Shown: one piece after another, positions 2,833 through 53,375 of the stretch
How positions within the stretch are numbered: position 1 is the stretch's first letter
Layout of the letters: each line of letters opens with the position of its first letter
Origin: an uncultured Propionivibrio sp.
GTDB lineage: Bacteria > Pseudomonadota > Gammaproteobacteria > Burkholderiales > Rhodocyclaceae
Direction: 5' to 3'
Assembly (NCBI GenBank): GCA_938040985.1
Contig: CALHZD010000095.1
Coordinates: forward strand, 447-64,446
DNA: 64,000 nt
Program-made: the position numbers and the translations under genes
The notes under the pieces: model-generated
The model's database searches: none
What the model was told of the DNA's origin: nothing
Seen by the model: the letters and a program-made list of their open reading frames with translations, nothing else

Positions 2833-3742
2833 GTGCGGGCGGCAATGCCGGCAGCAACATCGGCCACGGTATTGGCAATCGTGGCTGGCCGTGCTGATGC
2901 TGGTTTGGGTCATGTGCCTGATGCCGCAGGCGCAGGCCTCGGGCATTGCCGTGTTTACGCCGCGCATCGAGGCGGACGGCGAGGGCTACGGTCTTTCCGC
3001 CGATTTTATGATCGACCTGCCGCCACGCATCGAGGAGGTCATCAATCGCGGCATCGAGCTCCATTTTGTCGTTGACTTTGAATTGACGCGCAGCCGCTGG
3101 TACTGGTTCGATGCGCGTATCGCCCAGCGCAGCCGCACGTATCGGCTCTCCTATCATGCCTTGACGCGCCGGTATCGTTTGTCTACCGGCGGGCTGCATC
3201 AGGGGTTTGCAACGCTGAACGAGGCTTTGCGCGTGCTGGCGCGGCTGCGTAACTGGCCAGTTGCCGATCAGGGCGATTTATCGCCGGATGTCGTTTATCT
3301 GGCGGCCTTACGCATGCGGCTGGATTTGTCGCAGATGCCCAAGACGTTCCAGGTCAGCGCGCGCGCCAAGTCCGAATGGAATCTGGATTCCGGCTGGCTG
3401 CGCTGGCGCTTTCAACCGCCGGCTGCCGATGTGTCTGGCGCACCGGCAGCGGACGCCGGCCCGATTCAAGGCGGCAAGGCGCCGATCCATGCCGATCAGG
3501 CCGCAGGTGCAGCGGAACCTGCCGGGGAGGCGACCAAAGAACCCGATAAAGTGCAGGACAAAACACTGCCTGCTGACCCGTCGGCAGACATTCCCGCCGT
3601 GCCTACCGAGGCCGATTTTGCCGGCGCTGAGGCGCCTGCGGACGGCGCACGTTCTCCTGATCTGCCGCCTGCACCACAACAGGAACAGCAGGAAAAACAG
3701 GAGGCGCAAGAGACGCCGAAAATGCGGGAGAGCGCCCCATGA
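2783..3742 (+). CDS. Secreted DUF4390-like protein with a long Ala/Pro/Glu/Gln-rich C-terminal tail
   Basis: Signal peptide ...VWVMCLMPQAQA/SG. The conserved core FTPRIEADGEGYGLSADF...WYWFDARI...YRLSYHALTRRYRL matches my memory of the family usually found between rsmB and an NtrY-like kinase. ATGA overlap with the next gene. The start is chosen to limit overlap with rsmB (alternative GTG ~2819). Confidence 0.7.
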   Translation: MRRKIKVFRRARVKPAECGRQCRQQHRPRYWQSWLAVLMLVWVMCLMPQAQASGIAVFTPRIEADGEGYGLSADFMIDLPPRIEEVINRGIELHFVVDFELTRSRWYWFDARIAQRSRTYRLSYHALTRRYRLSTGGLHQGFATLNEALRVLARLRNWPVADQGDLSPDVVYLAALRMRLDLSQMPKTFQVSARAKSEWNLDSGWLRWRFQPPAADVSGAPAADAGPIQGGKAPIHADQAAGAAEPAGEATKEPDKVQDKTLPADPSADIPAVPTEADFAGAEAPADGARSPDLPPAPQQEQQEKQEAQETPKMRESAP

Positions 3743-5895
3743 AAACGCTGATCATCCTTACCGCTGCATTCGGCGGCATTCTATTGTTTCTGCTTGCCTC
3801 GGCGAGCGCCGATACGGCGCTGTTCGTTCGCCATTATCCGTGGTTGCTGGGGCTGAACGCCATGGCCGCCCTTTCCCTGTTCGCGTTGATTACCTGGCAG
3901 GTATATGCGCTGTGGCGGGAATATCATGCCAAGGTTTTTGGCTCGCGCCTCAAGTTGCGCCTGATGCTGATGTTCGTCCTGATCGCCGTGCTGCCCGGCA
4001 TGCTGGTTTATGGCGTGTCAGTGCAGTTCGTCACCAAAAGTATCGATGCCTGGTTCGATGCGCGCGTCGAAAAAGCACTCGAATCCGGCCTCGACCTCGG
4101 GCGCGAGGCGATTGATGCCATTCGTGACGAACTGATCGAAAAGGCGCGCAGTATGGCGCTTGAAATGAGCGAATCGGGCGAAATGCAGACGCATCTGGCG
4201 CTTGGTCGTCTGCGCGAACAAGCTGCCGTGCAGTCGGCGGCGCTTTATGCTGCCAATGGGCTGTTACTGGCAACGGCCACCAGCGAGCTGGCTTCGCCGC
4301 CCTTGCCGCAGCCGTCCGCCGAACTGATCAGCCGCGTGCGCAACGGCCGCGTGTATAGCGAAACGGAATCGGGCGAGCGCGACAGCATTCTGATTCGCGC
4401 CTACGCGCCGGTCAGCGCCAATGGTCTAGGGGCGGAAACGCGCGTGCTGCTGCTCATGCAGAGCGTGCCGGAGGGACTGGCCAGCAACGCCGGGCAGGTG
4501 CAAGCGGTCTACCGCGATTACCAGGAACTTTCTCTCGGCCGCCAGGGATTGACGCGCATTTATGCGCTGACGCTGACGCTGACCGTGCTGCTGGCCTTAT
4601 TCACGGCGATCGCCACGGCGTTCGTGCTGGCGCGCCGGCTTTCGGCGCCATTGTCGATCCTTGCCGAAGGTACGCAGGCGGTCGCTTCCGGCGATTTCAC
4701 GCCGCGCCAGGCCATTTACAGCCGCGACGAACTGAGCGTGCTGACTCAATCGTTCAGCCAGATGACGCGTCAGCTCAACGATGCGCAGCGGGAGACGGAA
4801 CGCCACCGCGCCGAACTCGAATCGGCGCGCGCCTATCTGGAATCCATCCTGTCGAATCTGTCGGCCGGCGTGCTCGTTTTCGATGCGCGTTTTCTGCTGC
4901 GCACCGTCAACCAGGGGGCGAAAATGATTCTGCGCGATAGCTTGGACGATCTGTACGGCAAGCCGGTCGATGCCTGGGCGCGGCAGCGCCGGCTGGGCGC
5001 GGCGATCCGGGACGCTTTTGCCGAACATGGACATGCGGAGTGGCAGACGCAGATCGAACTGGCTCGCCAGGGGGAACTGCCGCAGATCCTCAACCTGCGC
5101 GGCACGCAGCTGCCTGAGGATAGCGGCGGCGGCTACGTGGCCGTTTTCGACGACGTCACCCGCCTGGTGGCCGCCCAGCGCAGCGCCGCCTGGGGCGAAG
5201 TGGCGCGCCGTCTGGCGCATGAGATCAAGAATCCGCTCACGCCGATCCAGCTTTCCGCCGAGCGCCTGCAACTGAAGCTGGACGGCAAGCTGACGGGCAA
5301 CGACGGCGATATGCTCCGGCGCTCGACGCAGACGATCATCAATCAGGTCATGGCGATGAAACGGATGGTGAATGAATTTTCCGACTACGCACGCCTGCCG
5401 CCGCCTGATCTGACAGCGCTTGATCTGAATGCGCTGATTGGCGAAGTGCTCGGTCTGTACGAAAATTCCGTCGCCTGCATCGAGCTGGCTCTGGCCGCGG
5501 ATTTGCCGCTGGTGCGCGGCGATGCGTCACAATTGCGCCAGATCATCCATAATCTGCTGCGCAACGCCGAGGATGCGCAGGAGGGCATGGAGAATCCGTG
5601 GATCGGCATCCAGACCCGTTGCGACGGTGCGATGGTCGAGCTGAGGGTGGCGGATAATGGCGCGGGTTTTCCGCCGGAAATCATGGCGCGTATCTTTGAG
5701 CCGTATGTGACGACCAAGGCGCAGGGAACAGGATTGGGGCTGGCGATCGTCAAGAAAATTGTCGATGAGCACGGCGGCGTGATCCGCATCCACAACCGGC
5801 AGCCGTCGGGCGCGCAGATCAGCATTCTGTTACCCTCGGCTTCGTCGGCGGAGGCGAACGCTTTCATTGGAACTGAAACATCCATAGAGAACTGA
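3739..5895 (+). CDS. NtrY-like sensor histidine kinase (TM / HAMP / PAS / HisKA / HATPase)
   Basis: H-box HEIKNPLTPIQLSAERL; HAMP region LARRLSAPLSILAEGTQAVASGDF; G2 box GTGLGLAIVKKIVDEHGG; N-terminal TM segments. Confidence 0.9.
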   Translation: MKTLIILTAAFGGILLFLLASASADTALFVRHYPWLLGLNAMAALSLFALITWQVYALWREYHAKVFGSRLKLRLMLMFVLIAVLPGMLVYGVSVQFVTKSIDAWFDARVEKALESGLDLGREAIDAIRDELIEKARSMALEMSESGEMQTHLALGRLREQAAVQSAALYAANGLLLATATSELASPPLPQPSAELISRVRNGRVYSETESGERDSILIRAYAPVSANGLGAETRVLLLMQSVPEGLASNAGQVQAVYRDYQELSLGRQGLTRIYALTLTLTVLLALFTAIATAFVLARRLSAPLSILAEGTQAVASGDFTPRQAIYSRDELSVLTQSFSQMTRQLNDAQRETERHRAELESARAYLESILSNLSAGVLVFDARFLLRTVNQGAKMILRDSLDDLYGKPVDAWARQRRLGAAIRDAFAEHGHAEWQTQIELARQGELPQILNLRGTQLPEDSGGGYVAVFDDVTRLVAAQRSAAWGEVARRLAHEIKNPLTPIQLSAERLQLKLDGKLTGNDGDMLRRSTQTIINQVMAMKRMVNEFSDYARLPPPDLTALDLNALIGEVLGLYENSVACIELALAADLPLVRGDASQLRQIIHNLLRNAEDAQEGMENPWIGIQTRCDGAMVELRVADNGAGFPPEIMARIFEPYVTTKAQGTGLGLAIVKKIVDEHGGVIRIHNRQPSGAQISILLPSASSAEANAFIGTETSIEN

Positions 5896-7226: not shown

Positions 7227-7610
7227 ATGAATCTGGAAAAAGTGGTTTTCGGTTTTGTCATCATCCTGGCGTGTACGCTCAATTTTGGCTTTTTCGTCGG
7301 CGGGATCGACAACATTCATGTACATGACGCCGGCCATCTGTTCGGCGCCGTCGTCGTTAACCTGATTGCGCTGATCATGAAATTCGGCGATCGCACGCAC
7401 CTGGGCGCCACGCACCTGGCCACCAGCCTGGTAGCCATGCTGCAATTGCTGGCGGCCTCGCTCGTCTGGATGTGGCACGTCAATATCCAGCATCTGGCAA
7501 TGACCGGCGAAACCATGTCGAGCATTGTCTCGCTGAGCGGCGGCGCGCTGCTCGCCAATGCCATCTCGGTCATTCTTCTGGTCAGCGAAACCCTGTACCA
7601 GTCGCGCTGA
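7227..7610 (+). CDS. Small integral membrane protein (about 4 TM), function unknown
   Basis: 127-aa hydrophobic ORF with typical codon usage, 12 nt upstream of the channel gene and probably co-transcribed with it. Confidence 0.6.
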   Translation: MNLEKVVFGFVIILACTLNFGFFVGGIDNIHVHDAGHLFGAVVVNLIALIMKFGDRTHLGATHLATSLVAMLQLLAASLVWMWHVNIQHLAMTGETMSSIVSLSGGALLANAISVILLVSETLYQSR

Positions 7611-7622
7611 TCCGGCGGGCGC

Positions 7623-9500
7623 ATGAACGAAATTTCTTTCGTCATCCTGCGGCGTTTGCGCCGCCCGCTCATTGCGCTGGTCATCGCCTATGCGGTTTCC
7701 GTGTGGGGGATGGTGGTCATTCCCGGCATCGATGAACATGGCCGGCCCGATCATCTGAGTTTCTTCCATGCCCTGTACATCGTCAGCTATACCGCGACGA
7801 CCATCGGCTTCGGCGAAATTCCCCATCAGTTTACCGACCTGCAACGCGCCTGGATCATCGTTTGCATCTACCTGTGCGTCGTGGCCTGGGCCTATACGCT
7901 CGGCAGCGTCTTCCACCTCTCGCAGGATCCCACCTTTCGCCGGGCGATCAGCCGCCGGCGCTTCATGATCCGCGTGCAGCGCCTACAGACGCCGTTCGTC
8001 CTGATTGCCGGTTATGGCCAGAGCGGCATCATGCTGGCGCGCATGCTTGATCGCATGGGCTACCGCATCGTCATCATCGAACAGCGGCACGAACGCGCCT
8101 CGCGCATCGAGATCGATGAATTTGAGCGGCGCCCGATCTTCTGGGACGGCGACGCCCGCCTGCCCGACGTGCTGGTCGATGCCGGCGTGACGCATCGCCA
8201 CTGCATGGCGATGGTGGCGATGGCCGGCAACGACGAGACCAACCAGTCGGTCGCCATCGGCGGTACGGTGCTTAATCCCTCGCTGCGCATCATCGCCCGC
8301 GTGCATACGCCGATGGCGCAGGCAAACCTGAAGTCTTTCCGCAACATCGAGCTGATCAATCCGTACGAAACGTTTGCCAGCAATATACGTCTCGACATGG
8401 GGTCGGCGACAAAGCTGCGCGCCATCGAATGGCTGTCCGGACTGCCGGGCGGCGAATGCCCCGAATCGCTAAATCTGCCGAAAGGATACTGGGTCGTCTG
8501 CGGGTCGGGCGCCTTCTCGCTCTATGTGGTCGCGGCGCTCGAACAGGCGGGCGTCAGCTATTCGCTCGTCAACATCGATACGGCGCACAAAACCGAGGAC
8601 GATCTGGTTCGGCTGTCGAGCTTGCAGGAGATGGAAGACGATGAATTACACCAGGCCGGCATCGAAAGAGCCGTCGGCCTGGTGGCCGGCACCGACTCCG
8701 TCGCCGTTAACCTGGCGCTGATCAACCGCGCCCGTCTGGTCAATGCCAATCTCTATGTGGCGATTCGCCAAACGCATGTCGTCAATGCCAGCCTGGTGGA
8801 CGCTTCGATGGCCAATCTGCGCTTCGTCAAGGCCGATGTGGTCGCCCACAAAGCGCGGCAGCTGCTGACCTCGCCGCTGCTGATTCGCTATCTGCGCCAT
8901 CTTGAGTGCGATGACGATACGCTGGCGCAGCGCACGATCGAACTGTTGCAAACGCAAGTTGGCGAAAAAGTGCCGTTCATGTGGGGATTCGACTGCTTTG
9001 CTTCCTATGCCGGCTTGCGCGATGCGCTGTCGCCGGAAATTGATCCGCCGCTGTCGATTGCCGACCTGCTCTCGCATCCGACAACGCCTGCCGAGCGCCT
9101 GCCCGCCTTCGCCTTGCTGTTGCTGCGCCACCAGACGGAAATTCCCCTGCCGCCGGAAGATACCGTGCTGCGCTCCGGCGATCGTATCCTGTTCGCCGGC
9201 CGGCGCGGCGTGGCCGCCTTGCAGCGCCGCTTCCAGTTCGAGCCCGGCTTGCTGGAATTTGTCCGGACCGGCGTTGAAGCGCCGCGCAGCTGGCTGTTCT
9301 GCTATTTCCGTTCGGCGAAAAAGCGGCGGCTTCGGCGGGAACGCCTGCAACAACGTCTTGCCGCCGCACGGCGCGTCAGTGCTGAAAGCGCTGAAAATCT
9401 TGAAGAAGCATCCGACGAGTCCAATGACGCCGGCCCTGCCGATGAGAATCGCCGCAGCGACGGCGCGGACTCTTCCGAGCGGAGCGCACACGATCGCTGA
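7623..9500 (+). CDS. Potassium-channel-like protein with pore loop and RCK/TrkA-N type cytoplasmic domains
   Basis: Two TM segments flank a pore signature YTATTIGFGEIP. This is followed by a Rossmann-like FVLIAGYGQSGIMLAR (GxGxxG) and a second VVCGSGAFS domain. Arg/Glu-rich C-terminal tail. Confidence 0.8.
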   Translation: MNEISFVILRRLRRPLIALVIAYAVSVWGMVVIPGIDEHGRPDHLSFFHALYIVSYTATTIGFGEIPHQFTDLQRAWIIVCIYLCVVAWAYTLGSVFHLSQDPTFRRAISRRRFMIRVQRLQTPFVLIAGYGQSGIMLARMLDRMGYRIVIIEQRHERASRIEIDEFERRPIFWDGDARLPDVLVDAGVTHRHCMAMVAMAGNDETNQSVAIGGTVLNPSLRIIARVHTPMAQANLKSFRNIELINPYETFASNIRLDMGSATKLRAIEWLSGLPGGECPESLNLPKGYWVVCGSGAFSLYVVAALEQAGVSYSLVNIDTAHKTEDDLVRLSSLQEMEDDELHQAGIERAVGLVAGTDSVAVNLALINRARLVNANLYVAIRQTHVVNASLVDASMANLRFVKADVVAHKARQLLTSPLLIRYLRHLECDDDTLAQRTIELLQTQVGEKVPFMWGFDCFASYAGLRDALSPEIDPPLSIADLLSHPTTPAERLPAFALLLLRHQTEIPLPPEDTVLRSGDRILFAGRRGVAALQRRFQFEPGLLEFVRTGVEAPRSWLFCYFRSAKKRRLRRERLQQRLAAARRVSAESAENLEEASDESNDAGPADENRRSDGADSSERSAHDR

Positions 9501-49288: not shown

Positions 49289-49620
49289 TCCGTGCCCTAG
49301 ACGTCATGGCGCCGGCGGCATCGGGTATGCCGTCGGCGTGTGCGCTCTGGCTCAAAATAAGCTTCAGGCCGGCTGACAGCGCTGATGCAAGCGGCGGGCG
49401 ACTGGCGACGCGGCAGCCGCGTAACGCGGGAAGAATGGCGCAATCCCAATACAGACGCGGGCTGGCGGCGAGTGTCGCCATGGAACGACAGTATCAATGG
49501 GCTGAAACACGGGAAATTTGTGCGCATTCCCTCAAGTGTGTCGTTCACAGGCGACGCCTAAAGACTTGGAAAACCAGGATAGGTTATATAACAAATTGAA
49601 TATAAAAATAAAATTATTTA

Positions 49621-49636
49621 TGGCACGGAGTGTGCT
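49621..49636 (+). promoter_or_regulatory. Candidate sigma54 (-24/-12) promoter for the 49.8-53.0 kb operon
   Basis: TGGCACG-GAGT-GTGCT versus consensus TGGCACG-N4-TTGCW. GG-to-GC spacing is correct, with one mismatch in the -12 element. An AT-rich tract lies immediately upstream at 49581..49620. Confidence 0.4.
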
Positions 49637-49810
49637 TTAACTCCTTCGGCAAAAGCCGTTTCGTGCGTGAAGCCGGTTTTCTGATGGTGCTGATTTCTGG
49701 CCTCGCGTTTCATGGTTATCCCGTGAATAGGCGGGAGAGACTTCCGGCAGATGGTACTTGGGAATTTTCCCGACATGTTTTCCGCCGGATATAAGGAAAG
49801 GAGAATCAGA

Positions 49811-50155
49811 ATGAGCCTTCTCAAAAAACTCGCGCTGGCCGGTATTTTTTCTTCGTTTGCAATGGGCGCTTACGCGGGCGACATCGGCGATACGGCCGGC
49901 GCGATTTCCAGCGTGGCCTCGATACAAGGAAATGTTGCCGTTGGCGTTAATACCAAGGAGACAACGATCACGTCGCAAGCCTCGGGTGGTGGATCGGTTT
50001 CCAATGCGGGTTTAGGCGTGGTCGATGCCAAAGCACGTGGCGGAAAGAGCATCAATGCCGCAGTGGGCGTCAATACCGGTACGGCAAATATCAGTTCGAC
50101 GGCTCGAGATGGCGCAACGTCTAACGCCGGTCTGGCGGTGGTTCGTTCGCAATAA
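49811..50155 (+). CDS. Secreted 92-aa (mature) protein made of two tandem ~31-aa Asn/Gly/Ser/Thr-rich repeats; candidate fibre subunit
   Basis: RBS AGGAG. Signal peptide MSLLKKLALAGIFSSFAMGAYA/GD. Repeats are NVAVGVNTKETTITSQASGGGSVSNAGLGVV and NAAVGVNTGTANISSTARDGATSNAGLAVV. Confidence 0.75.
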   Translation: MSLLKKLALAGIFSSFAMGAYAGDIGDTAGAISSVASIQGNVAVGVNTKETTITSQASGGGSVSNAGLGVVDAKARGGKSINAAVGVNTGTANISSTARDGATSNAGLAVVRSQ

Positions 50156-50315
50156 GCTGCGCCTTGTCGTAAGTCTGACCGTATTCGTCCGGCCAGCGGC
50201 ATGACGCTCGACGCCCGTTGGCCGTCTGGCCGGATGCAAATGCGGTCAAGGCGGCCAATGGGCGCGAGCGATTAACCGATCAGTATGGATAACGATTCCT
50301 TGCCGGAGATAACGC

Positions 50316-50699
50316 ATGTTTCATGAACCAAAGAATGCACGCCGCTCGTTGTCGGGTTTTCTGACGTGCCTGCTGATGTTGGGCGGCGGGCTTGAGGTGG
50401 CTGCCTATGCGGCTGGGGCGGCCCATGTGGCTGGGCGCGCCGACAGTGTTGCCAAGCAGGGCGCTTCCGTCGTGGGTTCCCGTGTGTTCATCGATGGCGT
50501 TGAAGTCGATCCATCCGTTGAGCGTTACATCTCGCCGGCTTCCGGGGATGTGTACCGTATCCAGCGTAATGGCGACGCGGTTGCCGTGGTGCTTGAGCGC
50601 AGCGGGCAAAAAAACGGCGTGACGCGGATCGAATCGCACGCTTCCGGGCGTGGCACGACGGCGAACGCCGGGCAGGTGGTGATTACGACCGGGCAGTGA
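50316..50699 (+). CDS. Secreted protein ending in one copy of the same repeat motif
   Basis: RBS GGAGA and a signal-like N-terminus. The C-terminus RIESHASGRGTTANAGQVVITTGQ parallels NISSTARDGATSNAGLAVVRSQ of the preceding gene. Confidence 0.65.
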   Translation: MFHEPKNARRSLSGFLTCLLMLGGGLEVAAYAAGAAHVAGRADSVAKQGASVVGSRVFIDGVEVDPSVERYISPASGDVYRIQRNGDAVAVVLERSGQKNGVTRIESHASGRGTTANAGQVVITTGQ

Positions 50700-50827
50700 A
50701 GACAATGAATTATTAGACGCCATGGCGTATCTAAGAGTCAGATACGAGTTGGTGGCTTGCTAGCGGGTTGCGAGGTTTTATTGTCGATTAGATAGAATGC
50801 GGAATGAAAACATTGAAAGGAGGCGCA

Positions 50828-51589
50828 ATGAATCGTCGAGAATTGAGTCGAAAAGTTTATGCCCTACAAGAAGGGCAGTGGACGCGCATGGAAGCTTTCT
50901 TTCTGTCGTTTTCCTTAGGGTTCCTTTTGGCATTTTTATGTGCGCTCATGGCGCCTTCGCGAGCAATGGCCGGTGATATTGCGGGCGATGCGTCATCGGC
51001 CAATCGGCAGCAGGTTTTAAACCAGAACGGAATGGTTTCTGGCAAAGTGACCGAAACGGCGGATAGCGTCATCATTGATGGCGCGACTTTTGTTTCCAGC
51101 GGAAATGATCAGCCGGTCGTCAAAGTCGATGCGGATACCCGGAAAAAGGTCATTCTGCGCAACGTTAAGATCATTAGCAACAACCAGACGATTTCGGATC
51201 TGAACGACACGCACAAGGGCACGGCCGGCCTTGTCGCGGTCGACAATAGCCTCTCGAAGTCCAAGGTAGTCATGAGGAATGTCCGTGTCGTGGCGCACAA
51301 CGCCAATGTGAGCAGCGTCAGCGAGGAACGCGATGGCTGCGCCGGGCTGGTGTGCAGCAAGGGCGGGCGTTACGACCAGACGCAGTCCGTTTCGACAGCC
51401 GCAGTGGGGCGGACGAATATTTCATCGGTGCAGGGCGCGCGCCCGGATTACCGCAAGGTCGCCGCCACCCATAACACGCGCTATGGTACGCAGCGCACGG
51501 CGGCGGCCGCTTCGGCCTCCAGCGTTTCGCCTGTGACGGCGACGCAGCGCACACGGCCGGATTACCGCAAACTGCCGCAAGCGAACTGA
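50828..51589 (+). CDS. Larger secreted/anchored protein with two or three copies of the repeat and a duplicated RPDYRK C-terminal motif
   Basis: RBS AGGAGG 5 nt before the ATG at 50828. Hydrophobic segment ends ...SRAMA/GDIAGD. Repeats are RNVKIISNNQTISDLNDTHKGTAGLVAV and RNVRVVAHNANVSSVSEERDGCAGLVCS. Confidence 0.65.
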   Translation: MNRRELSRKVYALQEGQWTRMEAFFLSFSLGFLLAFLCALMAPSRAMAGDIAGDASSANRQQVLNQNGMVSGKVTETADSVIIDGATFVSSGNDQPVVKVDADTRKKVILRNVKIISNNQTISDLNDTHKGTAGLVAVDNSLSKSKVVMRNVRVVAHNANVSSVSEERDGCAGLVCSKGGRYDQTQSVSTAAVGRTNISSVQGARPDYRKVAATHNTRYGTQRTAAAASASSVSPVTATQRTRPDYRKLPQAN

Positions 51590-51635: not shown

Positions 51636-52583
51636 ATGAAAACCAGACACCCACGTTTATTGCCGCTTGCAGCTGCTCTGTTGCTGGGCGGCTGCGCCAC
51701 CGTTGACCTGAAAACGCCGCGCGCTGACGATTACAGTGATGCCAGCAAGGAGAAGATTCGCGGCATCGCCGAGCTGCGTTCAAAAACGCTAGCCGACAAC
51801 GAAACCTACTTCACGGATCACCTGCGCTGCATCGGTAAGGGCAAACTGCTCAACGACCTGTCCTTAAGAGTCAGCGTCGCGCCCATTTACGACAAGACGG
51901 CCAAGGTTTTTCCCAACGGATCGACGGCGATTTCGGAAATGGTGCTGAACGCCCTTTCCTATGTGAAGGGCCTGCACATCGTCGATACGCCCTTTGGCGA
52001 CATCACCGAATCGCGCGTCAACCTGCTCAGCGACCGCTACGTCTTTCTCGCCAAGGGGCTGAAAGACAACATCGTCCCGATCTCCAACAAGATCGCCCCA
52101 CTGCCCTATGGCATCCTCTTCCCCAGCCAGATCAGCATTTCCGGCGCGCTCGTCCAGTATGACGAGGGGACGGAAACGGTCTCGCCGGAAATTGGGGTGG
52201 ATATTGATGCGTTTTCCGGCAAGCGTATGGTTGAAACTATTTCCGTCGGCCTGCACCTGCGCCTGATCAACGCTAACGACGGCGAGATTCTCAGCAACAG
52301 CGCGCTGGGCAAGCGCGGCAGCGTGCTGCTTTCCAACAAGGTTTACAAGATCAAGACTAGTGGCAGCTATTTCCGCCTGATCAGCGCTAAGCAGTACGGC
52401 TTGGACGTATCCGTGTCCGTGGATGACCCCAAACACTACGTCATTCAGGAAATGGTCGAGCGGGGCGTTGCCGAACTGCTCTCGGTTTTGCCAAGCGATG
52501 TCGTGTGCCCGGAAAAGAAGAACGATGCTGCTGTAAATGCCCAGGAAACAGCGAGCGTAGCGACCCCCTCAGGGTCTGAATGA
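51636..52583 (+). CDS. CsgG/HfaB-family outer-membrane secretion-channel lipoprotein
   Basis: Lipobox LLLGGC. Colinear with my recollection of E. coli CsgG in three stretches: RVSVAPIYDKT...STAISEMVLNAL; ISISGALVQYDEG...ISVGLHLRLINANDGEILSNS; YFRLIS...DDPKHYVIQEMVERGVAELL. Confidence 0.75.
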   Translation: MKTRHPRLLPLAAALLLGGCATVDLKTPRADDYSDASKEKIRGIAELRSKTLADNETYFTDHLRCIGKGKLLNDLSLRVSVAPIYDKTAKVFPNGSTAISEMVLNALSYVKGLHIVDTPFGDITESRVNLLSDRYVFLAKGLKDNIVPISNKIAPLPYGILFPSQISISGALVQYDEGTETVSPEIGVDIDAFSGKRMVETISVGLHLRLINANDGEILSNSALGKRGSVLLSNKVYKIKTSGSYFRLISAKQYGLDVSVSVDDPKHYVIQEMVERGVAELLSVLPSDVVCPEKKNDAAVNAQETASVATPSGSE

Positions 52584-52610
52584 AAAGCTCAGTGAGAGGT
52601 GATGCTTATT

Positions 52611-53018
52611 ATGCGTAAACAATACTGGATAGCGTTGAGCGTTTTTTTGGGGGCACTGTTGCAGGCCCCACTGTTGATGGCCGCCGATGAAGTGCTTGTC
52701 CCTTGGGTGCCGGCGGTAATTGATTCTGATGAACAGGCGGAAACGGAGCGGCGCGCACGCGCAAGCGCTTTGGAGAATCTGCACGCACCCGAAGAAAACA
52801 GCGAAGAAGCATGGCTGAAAAAATTTAATCCTGAATTGGAAGATGCGGCGACGGAAGAAACGTCACAAACGGGTTCCCGCTATTCTTCTACAGCCAAAGC
52901 ATCCACTAAGGATGTAGCAGGCAAATCAAGAAAACGGAAAAGTACGGGCGCCGAAAAGAAATCGCTACAAAACACGCGCGACTCAGGTTCCGGGATTCAC
53001 GGCGCTGGGGGACGCTAA
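52611..53018 (+). CDS. Secreted, highly charged low-complexity protein (acidic N-half, Lys/Ser-rich C-half)
   Basis: Signal peptide ...LLQAPLLMA/ADE. No recognisable domain. Last gene before the terminator. Confidence 0.55.
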   Translation: MRKQYWIALSVFLGALLQAPLLMAADEVLVPWVPAVIDSDEQAETERRARASALENLHAPEENSEEAWLKKFNPELEDAATEETSQTGSRYSSTAKASTKDVAGKSRKRKSTGAEKKSLQNTRDSGSGIHGAGGR

Positions 53019-53133
53019 CTGAGCGAAATACAAAGTGGCAGCGTGATGAAGCGCCATGGGAGATACATAAACTGAATGTGGGGCGGGTAGTCTCATAATA
53101 TTTTATGGTTTCCGCTAGGGGCGGCGATGCCTT

Positions 53134-53171
53134 GTCCCGTATCTCCAAAAAAGATACGGGACATTTTTTTG
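53134..53171 (+). terminator. Rho-independent terminator of the 49.8-53.0 kb operon
   Basis: Perfect 11-bp stem GTCCCGTATCT / AGATACGGGAC with a 7-nt loop, followed by ATTTTTTTG. Confidence 0.8.
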
Positions 53172-53375
53172 TGCGATAAAAGTTCAGAAGATATTGCGCA
53201 TGATTGCTCACTTAGCGCAGTTCGAAAGATTTGTAACGTAAGTAGGCAGAATATGGCTCGATATCATAAATAAAATGCAATGCCCCCTTTTGTGTTTGGC
53301 TATAATCCTTACAGTGTTGGCGCCGTATGGATTTTTTATTGGCACGACCGTTGTTCTCAATATCTGGAGAAAATT

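Follow-up and report, generated by a model that had tools for sequence, protein, structure and literature searches.

A rare five-gene cassette from an uncultured Propionivibrio combines a divergent CsgG/HfaB-superfamily lipoprotein with small repeat proteins as its candidate cargo

Organization of the locus

A 64,000-nucleotide stretch of DNA from an uncultured Propionivibrio sp. (contig CALHZD010000095.1, assembly GCA_938040985.1), referred to below as the window, contains five co-directional genes between positions 49811 and 53018. Their products all carry export signals, with signal peptidase I sites in four of them and a lipobox in the product of gene 4. Gene 1 encodes a small precursor with two similar units in its mature part, gene 2 ends in a single unit of the same type, and gene 4 encodes a lipoprotein with a CsgG-like fold. 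By analogy with the curli and Hfa systems, we read genes 1–5 as a putative system of the CsgG/HfaB type that would secrete and assemble a new beta-rich subunit, and in which gene 2 would be a nucleator or adaptor; we put the probability of this reading at about one half. The features are listed in Table 1. Related loci are designated by L numbers and related proteins by P numbers.

Table 1. Cassette features and their positions in the window (aa, amino acids; nt, nucleotides; ORF, open reading frame; HMM, hidden Markov model; AF2, AlphaFold2; Sec, general secretory pathway)
Feature	Position	Strand	Description
Candidate sigma-54 (-24/-12) element	49621..49636	+	TGGCACGGAGTGTGCT; ~175 nt upstream of gene 1; tentative
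Gene 1	49811..50155	+	114-aa precursor; ORF translation
Gene-1 signal peptide	49811..49876	+	aa 1–22; Sec-type; MSLLKKLALAGIFSSFAMGAYA followed by GD, cleavage at AYA/GD
Gene-1 mature N-terminal non-repeat segment	49877..49930	+	GDIGDTAGAISSVASIQG; 18 aa; conserved G, D, D, A
Gene-1 repeat unit 1	49931..50023	+	NVAVGVNTKETTITSQASGGGSVSNAGLGVV; aa 41–71; unit HMM 53.8 bits; three predicted strands
Gene-1 linker	50024..50053	+	DAKARGGKSI; 10 aa, Gly/Lys-rich; loop in AF2 model
Gene-1 repeat unit 2	50054..50143	+	NAAVGVNTGTANISSTARDGATSNAGLAVV; aa 82–111; unit HMM 49.9 bits; three predicted strands
Gene 2	50316..50699	+	127-aa secreted protein; ~60-aa unrelated N-terminal domain, one gene-1-type C-terminal unit
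Gene-2 C-terminal partial unit	50616..50690	+	GVTRIESHASGRGTTANAGQVVITT; aa 101–125; unit HMM positions 11–35 of 35
Gene 3	50804..51589	+	Secreted; likely start ATG 50828 after AAGGAGG; mature from 50972 (GDIAGD...), 205 aa
Gene-3 internal repeat	51158..51358	+	RNVKIISNNQTISD...AGLVAV / RNVRVVAHNANVSS...CAGLVCS; 39-aa period
Gene-3 C-terminal tail	51440..51571	+	RPDYRK twice: 51440–51457, 51554–51571
Gene 4	51636..52583	+	315-aa lipoprotein; lipobox LGG/C, Cys20 at 51693–51695; presumed outer-membrane channel
Gene 5	52599..53018	+	Secreted; 139 aa from GTG 52599, 135 aa from likely start ATG 52611
Intrinsic-terminator-like hairpin	53133..53173	+	12-bp stem and T run; single terminator, after gene 5, closes operon

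Two similar units in the gene-1 protein

The translation of 49931–50143 reads NVAVGVNTKETTITSQASGGGSVSNAGLGVV-DAKARGGKSI-NAAVGVNTGTANISSTARDGATSNAGLAVV, in exact agreement with the coordinates first given for it by the original prediction, which had been made from the letters of the sequence. The two units are identical at 18 of 31 positions, with one 1-aa gap in the alignment, and their BLOSUM62 local score of 70 compares with 30.4 ± 5.6 for 2000 composition-preserving shuffles (maximum 59; z = 7.1). Because not one of these shuffles attains the observed score, the repeat is real and no effect of composition, and it passes the shuffled control that had been proposed for it. The repeat had been described as perfectly phased and tandem, and as almost the whole mature product. 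The two units of about 31 aa are significant, but the phasing was overstated, given the 10-aa linker, the resulting period of 41 aa, and the gap; units and linker together cover 71 of the 92 mature residues, and the 18-aa N-terminal part lies outside the repeat.

The mature protein (92 aa, 8.6 kDa, isoelectric point 8.5) lacks C, F, H, M, P, W, and Y, and 76% of its residues are G, A, S, V, T, or N. A bias of this strength might point to a mere low-complexity artifact or to a secreted Gly-rich bacteriocin-like peptide, in either case with no structural repeat, and 3 of 10 gene-3 relatives do weakly match the CCPGW putative-bacteriocin model (best expectation (E) value 0.0015, below the cut-off). 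We nevertheless reject this explanation as very improbable. It is largely refuted by the shuffle controls and by the absence of an ATP-binding cassette (ABC) exporter or immunity gene; in addition, conservation runs column by column over 34 units, the leaders are Sec signal peptides and not of the double-glycine type, and no defense or toxin model matches.

The profile HMM of the unit has 35 positions and was built from 34 gene-1-family units of 17 family members. Its consensus reads x-x-N-x-A-V-G-V-N-(x)-T/S-G-x-A-x-I-x-A/S-x-A/S-x-G-x-G/S-x-A/S-N-A-G-L-A-V-V/I, and the Asn, Ala, and Gly positions, including those of N-A-G, are invariant or nearly so over the 34 units. Relatives of gene 1 differ in the number of units, with one in P0042, two in most members, and three in P0040. 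The two-unit architecture is present in the positional gene-1 orthologue of 9 of 10 lineages (z from 4.6 to 15), even where the sequence itself has diverged past recognition.

Units 1 and 2 resemble each other more within a protein (similarity 0.531) than across proteins (0.433), a difference that none of 10,000 permutations attained. Both comparisons stem from one duplication, and independent evolution therefore predicts equal similarity. Matched substitutions sit at equal positions of the two units, as in P0041, where NAGL has become SAGQ in both. Two explanations would fit the excess similarity within proteins, namely contacts between units stacked in register and gene conversion or concerted evolution.

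We modeled gene 1 with AF2 from an alignment of 17 sequences. The best model, with a predicted local distance difference test (pLDDT) score of 76.4, has three strands in each unit and a loop at the linker, while the N-terminal 16 residues are of low confidence (pLDDT below 50). The strand-turn-strand periodicity that had been guessed from the composition thus finds a counterpart in the three strands per unit of this model; the other four models reach only 36–63. With its ladder positions, variable unit number, predicted strands, and matched substitutions, gene 1 displays the generic features of beta-solenoids and functional amyloids. Ahead of the first unit, columns G23, D24, D27, and A31 are invariant in the family alignment, and this segment may have a role in secretion or targeting. 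The mature proteins of genes 1 and 3 start alike (GDIGDTAGA at 49877–49891 and GDIAGDASS at 50972–50989), which may reflect a common recognition segment or mere cleavage-site context.

The remark that the motif differs from the curlin repeat holds: gene 1 matches neither the Pfam Curlin_rpt model nor any other family at E ≤ 1, and the same search found no curlin repeat (PF07012) or other Pfam match in genes 2 and 3. Alignment of gene 1 with E. coli CsgA gave a score of 46, which 330 of 1000 shuffles equaled. Pfam, NCBIfam, PADLOC, and PDB sequence searches with genes 1, 2, 3, and 5 gave nothing meaningful; genes 2 and 5 have no relatives in Pfam, NCBIfam, or the PDB, gene 3 has none in Pfam or the PDB, and no match to CsgE (PF10627) or CsgF (PF10614) was found in genes 2, 3, and 5 at a Pfam E value ≤ 1.

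A single unit at the C-terminus of gene 2

That the unit recurs at the C-terminus of gene 2 is borne out by the unit HMM, which scores 24.0 bits there; among 1000 shuffled versions of gene 2 the highest score was 9.1 bits, and none matched the observed one. The orthologues of gene 2 in L001, L005, and L011 give 22.9–23.7 bits, that in L009, which has two units, 15.5 bits, and that in L007 12.9 bits. A plain pairwise alignment of gene 1 with gene 2 of the window is not significant (z = 1.7). Within other loci, the similarity between genes 1 and 2 is considerable, with z = 14.1 in L023, where the two are full-length paralogues, 6.5 in L010, 6.4 in L022, 6.2 in L021, and 3.9 in L001. The likeness of genes 1 and 2 holds within lineages although the sequence of the unit differs greatly between them.

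One locus, L006 (positions 3630–5477 of a metagenome-assembled genome of a freshwater pseudomonadote), contains genes 1, 3, 4, and 5 and lacks gene 2, so that at least one lineage can do without gene 2. Genes 1 and 2 are separated by a spacer (50156–50315) that can fold into a long and highly stable hairpin (-81 kcal/mol, z = -5.4). Its long stem is shared by L011 and missing from L005 and L001; it is lineage-specific, and we rejected it as a part of the system. In the window, it could damp read-through into genes 2–5.

Gene 4 is a divergent member of the CsgG/HfaB superfamily

A phmmer search with gene 4 found the E. coli CsgG structures in the PDB with an E value of about 1e-3 over residues 79–280, which is nearly the whole fold. 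Its AF2 model has a pLDDT of 74.8, and when this model was submitted to Foldseek, the best 25 matches were all CsgG, with E values down to 7e-10 and target-normalized template modeling (TM) scores up to 0.60. Among 27 relatives of gene 4, 24 match the NCBIfam HfaB model (best E value 4e-9), 18 match Pfam CsgG (best 1e-8), and 4 match the enterobacterial CsgG model, all of them with scores below the equivalog cut-offs. Gene 4 of the window itself scores 19.9 bits with PF03783, just under the cut-off of 20.8, and 19 bits with the HfaB equivalog NF037935, for which the cut-off is 300. The lipobox and the CsgG fold place gene 4 in the CsgG family at the level of the superfamily and not of orthology: it is a divergent member of the CsgG/HfaB superfamily, orthologous neither to CsgG nor to HfaB.

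Equivalents of both transmembrane hairpins of CsgG are found in gene 4. The best-conserved stretch of the family, PIYDKTxKV[F/Y]PxGSTAISDM, is the equivalent of the CsgG constriction loop, which in CsgG is lined by stacked rings of Tyr51, Asn55, and Phe56 (PMC4594475). In gene 4 the loop has 5 aa (V-[F/Y]-P-x-G), including an invariant aromatic residue (F/Y92), versus 9 aa (FKPYPASNF) in CsgG. Besides the lipid-carrying Cys20, Cys65 and Cys291 are invariant in the family and may form a disulfide. Distant members (P0033–P0037, L010, and L021–L023) have a charged, coiled-coil-like insertion of about 150–190 aa ahead of the CsgG-like core.

A CsgG-like fold is common to non-channel lipoproteins, and most Pfam CsgG matches lie outside curli systems (PMC3521004). 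Gene 4 could then be something other than a channel, or have an unrelated role, and gene 1 could be a small beta protein that does not polymerize, whether a six-stranded meander or sandwich that closes on itself or a binding protein of the surface or periplasm. Its repeat would then be an internal duplication; the predicted turns of 3–4 residues suit hairpins and beta-arcs alike, and four of the five AF2 models of gene 1 are poor. We consider this explanation unlikely, however, as a closed globular fold leaves unexplained why the number of units varies from one to three, why gene 2 carries a single lineage-matched unit, why aromatic and large hydrophobic core residues are absent, and why gene 1 strictly co-occurs with a CsgG/HfaB-like gene.

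Distribution of the cassette

The gene-1 family comprises 9 clusters among 5.8 billion proteins, and an exhaustive profile search of 1.84 billion representatives gave 12 hits. A search with the repeat had been proposed to see whether it defines a family; the family is tiny. The gene-4 family has 28 clusters and the gene-3 family 10, and no family has a name. The order of the cassette genes is kept beside unrelated neighbors in about nine lineages (L001, L005–L010, and L021–L023). In distant cassettes of low guanine–cytosine (GC) content (L010 and L021–L023), the units contain pairs of Cys, and gene 4 has a long insertion.

The sole named genome is that of Dentiradicibacter hellwigii Wk13 (Rhodocyclaceae), whose gene 4 is 92% identical to the copy in the window; metagenome contigs are up to 97% identical. 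This strain was isolated from an infected human root canal (PMC11881992), and the published description of D. hellwigii makes no mention of biofilm, fimbriae, pili, aggregation, or curli. In D. hellwigii (L005), ORFs that by eye resemble transposases lie to either side of the cassette (2895–3688 and 7602–9053), unlike in the window, where it has an Amdase-like gene on one side and a 392-aa ORF on the other.

Gene 3 has a repeat of its own

The segments of gene 3 at 51158–51358, which the original prediction had placed in the same register as the gene-1 unit, are exactly positioned and form a genuine internal repeat (score 71 versus 27.5 ± 4.9, z = 8.9, with 0 of 2000 shuffles as high), which is conserved in an alignment that spans 12 loci. 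The shared register, however, is unsupported. Pairwise comparison of the gene-1 unit with the gene-3 repeat gives z = 0.7, and gene 3 obtains -10 bits from the HMM of the gene-1 unit, a value equaled by 837 of 1000 shuffles. When the unit profiles of the two genes are compared with hhalign, only seven columns align (AGLxVxD; P = 0.03, probability 1.6%), and in a global alignment of the profiles 20 of 200 column permutations do equally well; this null contained a few aberrant high scores, and we relied on the counts alone. With full-family profiles, the hhalign alignment is confined to the signal peptides and the initial GD. The two repeats have an AG(L/I/V)(V/I) motif in common and nothing more. 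Distant cassettes give only hints of a relationship, with z = 3.9 between genes 1 and 3 of L010 and with a score of the gene-3 unit HMM on gene 1 of L021 and L022 that 1 of 300 shuffles reaches.

In L010, L021, L022, and L023, the units of genes 1–3 all end in C-x4-C (e.g., NCASGICN, YCSGAICN, and TCSALVCN), and this ending resembles CAGLVC in gene 3 of the window. The C-x4-C endings suggest ladders of disulfides and raise the possibility that the three repeats share an ancient ancestor. The RPDYRK motif in the C-terminal tail of gene 3 occurs once in L006, L007, and L008 and twice in L001, L005, and L011, where the second copy in L005 is a variant. The longer form G-x-RPDYRK is conserved at the terminus, with two copies in Dentiradicibacter-like genes and one in others; it may be an anchoring or sorting tag.

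Gene 5, regulation, and neighboring genes

Gene 5 has a conserved N-terminal motif, VPWxPxVIDSDEQAETERR, which is followed by a low-complexity tail, and may be an accessory factor. In the slightly longer form VPWxPxVIDSDEQAETERRxR (52683–52760 in the window), the motif is duplicated within the proteins of L007 and L008. Outside the motif the protein is of low complexity, and its length varies from 132 to 368 aa by locus.

Upstream of gene 1, the sigma-54 pattern TGGCACN5KTGCW has its single match in the 64-kb window, where 0.26 matches are expected by chance. The candidate element is kept in L011 and L005 and, with two changes, in L001, and suggests enhancer-dependent regulation of the operon. 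An AT-rich tract (49580–49620) adjoins it. The 5' leader of gene 1 (49637–49810) remains well conserved as far as L001, whose gene-1 protein is only 68% identical; RNAalifold folds it with -44.6 kcal/mol and five compensatory pairs, and it may be a regulatory leader. No Rfam family was found in the window, and none in the leader region even at E ≤ 1.

The neighbors of the cassette in the window are ilvD, the Amdase-like gene, and the downstream 392-aa ORF, which, read by eye, we take to be a solute-binding protein of the tripartite ATP-independent periplasmic (TRAP) type. The window has no GC anomaly that would suggest recent transfer.

A possible mechanism

Computation shows the repeat itself, the match of gene 2 to the unit profile, the resemblance of the gene-4 fold to that of CsgG, the conserved cassette, and the matched evolution of the units. 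That gene 4 is a channel, that it secretes the gene-1 protein, and that this protein stacks and polymerizes are proposals modeled on curli and Hfa, and what we assign to genes 2, 3, and 5 is a proposal as well. All five products would leave the cytoplasm by the Sec pathway, and the gene-4 lipoprotein would oligomerize into an outer-membrane channel. The gene-1 protein, which has no Cys, Pro, or aromatic residues, could cross this channel unfolded. Outside the cell it would adopt a fold of two units, each of about 31 aa and three strands, stacked on one another with ladders of Asn, Gly, Ala, and Val, and polymerize head-to-tail into a beta-rich fiber or sheath. Gene 2, with its different N-terminal domain and one lineage-matched unit, would present a template rung and act as nucleator, adaptor, or cap, and gene 3, with its separate repeat and RPDYRK tail, and gene 5 may supply accessory or anchoring components.

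There is precedent for such an arrangement, as CsgG exports curlin, and HfaB is needed for the surface localization of the amyloid-like HfaA and HfaD (PMC4594475; PMC6707917; bioRxiv 10.1101/2022.07.20.500906). The idea of a beta-solenoid or functional amyloid is strengthened by the CsgG/HfaB fold of gene 4, by the one to three units of gene-1 relatives, by their matched substitutions, and by the lineage-matched unit of gene 2. By analogy with these systems, the gene-1 protein would probably be the subunit of a surface fiber not described before.

Several observations weigh against a CsgG/HfaB-type system with a polymerizing subunit. Gene 1 has no sequence or fold likeness to known amyloid subunits in Pfam, NCBIfam, PDB sequences, or Foldseek, where its model lists FapC (9nqd) alone, which is not significant (E = 8.3, probability 0.01). 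That model is moderate and unstable, with pLDDT values of 36–63 for the other four against 76 for the best, and as a monomer it does not tell parallel stacking from an antiparallel meander. On the side of gene 4, the constriction loop falls 4 residues short of its counterpart in E. coli CsgG and has no Asn55/Phe56 pair ahead of the conserved S-T-A, the family profile matches the PDB more weakly (E = 0.3) than the single sequence does (1e-3), and the basic fold is also that of the non-channel lipoproteins FlgT, PelC, LptE, and HpaA, which appear among the more distant Foldseek matches. The Cys pairs in the units of distant cassettes, if oxidized in the periplasm, fit poorly with passage through a 0.9-nm pore. 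Finally, the CsgG homologue of Acinetobacter affects poly-N-acetylglucosamine (PNAG) and pili, not amyloid (bioRxiv 10.1101/2021.05.19.444899).

Comparison with known systems

In its proposed working, the cassette resembles curli or a holdfast anchor most, and it is a member of neither. As in curli, an outer-membrane lipoprotein of the CsgG fold stands beside small Sec-exported proteins with imperfect, strand-rich repeats and conserved Asn, Gly, and Ala; a second protein with a like repeat, gene 2, could nucleate, as CsgB does; and the number of repeats varies among relatives, as it does in CsgA homologues (PMC3521004). Unlike in curli, no curlin repeat (PF07012), CsgE (PF10627), or CsgF (PF10614) was detected here. 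The unit is about 31 aa long, with a 41-aa period and three predicted strands, whereas that of curlin has about 22 aa and two strands, and a gene-1 subunit contains only two of them. Gene 4 also differs from CsgG in having about 60 additional aa in its N-terminal part and in the shorter constriction loop without the Asn–Phe pair.

Gene 4 is no more distant from HfaB than from CsgG, and its relatives match the HfaB model more often (24 of 27, best 4e-9) than that of enterobacterial CsgG (4 of 27). Hfa systems, too, pair one lipoprotein with several small secreted proteins that form multimers; those of Caulobacter are resistant to sodium dodecyl sulfate, and their localization to the surface depends on the lipoprotein (PMC6707917; bioRxiv 10.1101/2022.07.20.500906). 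The cassette might therefore be a complex akin to a holdfast anchor, with export through an HfaB-like gene 4 and a short, cell-bound multimeric anchor that tethers exopolysaccharide or another matrix component, in the manner of HfaA, HfaD, and HfaE of Caulobacter, in place of a free-standing adhesive fiber. That gene 1 has two units only would suit such an anchor, and the conserved charged tail of gene 3 (RPDYRK) could bind another polymer. We regard this as improbable, since the HfaB score of gene 4 is far under the equivalog cut-off (19 bits versus 300), genes 1, 2, 3, and 5 match no NCBIfam model, no gene for polysaccharide synthesis or export adjoins the cassette in the window or in the flanks of related loci, and the hosts are not stalked Caulobacterales. 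The order and number of the genes differ from those of Hfa systems as well, and the hosts are Rhodocyclaceae and other unrelated lineages. In particular, the flanks hold no holdfast polysaccharide (hfs) genes, and the closest genome, that of Dentiradicibacter, belongs to the Rhodocyclaceae. As for Hfa partners, the gene-1 and gene-3 families and genes 2 and 5 of the window match no NCBIfam or Pfam model, though the coverage of HfaA, HfaD, and HfaE in these libraries was unchecked and their absence is not thereby shown.

With the functional amyloid Fap of Pseudomonas (FapC and FapB), the system proposed here would share a major subunit of few imperfect repeats with linkers and a minor paralogue that is thought to nucleate. 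There is no sequence similarity between the two, the FapC (9nqd) listing at E = 8.3 is not significant, and Pfam gives no match. The channel of Fap is the FapF beta-barrel, in place of a CsgG-type lipoprotein. The fungal HET-s/NWD2 pair, with its two-rung beta-solenoid amyloid, offers an architectural analogy only, in which HET-s, like gene 1 as predicted, has two pseudo-repeats of about three strands each, joined by a flexible Gly-rich linker and with conserved Asn and Gly, and the partner, like gene 2, has a single copy of the motif that could template folding. It differs in that there is no sequence relationship and that HET-s is a cytoplasmic signaling amyloid, whereas gene 1 encodes a Sec-exported protein paired with a putative outer-membrane channel. 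A CsgG-family lipoprotein in a non-curli operon is also found in a widespread cluster that joins CsgG to two lipoproteins (Acinetobacter D1G37_12595-12605, Neisseria GNA1162 type; bioRxiv 10.1101/2021.05.19.444899). There the partners are two lipoproteins, whereas here they are four secreted proteins that are not lipoproteins, two of which share a repeat unit.

Significance

The operon is rare and, on the analogies drawn above, best described as a variant CsgG/HfaB-type secretion-assembly system with a new cargo family, which may polymerize. To our knowledge, only two types of cargo of CsgG-type export have been characterized, curlin and the Hfa proteins of Caulobacter. Most CsgG homologues lie outside curli operons and have no known cargo (PMC3521004). 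We advance more tentatively, as the less probable outcome, that the cassette represents an independent new family of Gram-negative surface amyloid or beta-solenoid fibers with a divergent CsgG/HfaB-type channel, in which a two-rung gene-1 subunit is templated by the single, co-evolving rung of gene 2. If that is true, the nucleation logic of CsgB/CsgA or HET-s/NWD2 would have been reached with an unrelated repeat. With a subunit of less than 9 kDa and a candidate one-unit nucleator, the cassette would offer a compact system in which to study how beta-solenoids assemble on a template and how secretion of the CsgG type works. Nanopore engineers may take an interest in a CsgG-like pore whose constriction loop is shorter, and in the root-canal host D. 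hellwigii a matrix fiber could bear on endodontic biofilms.

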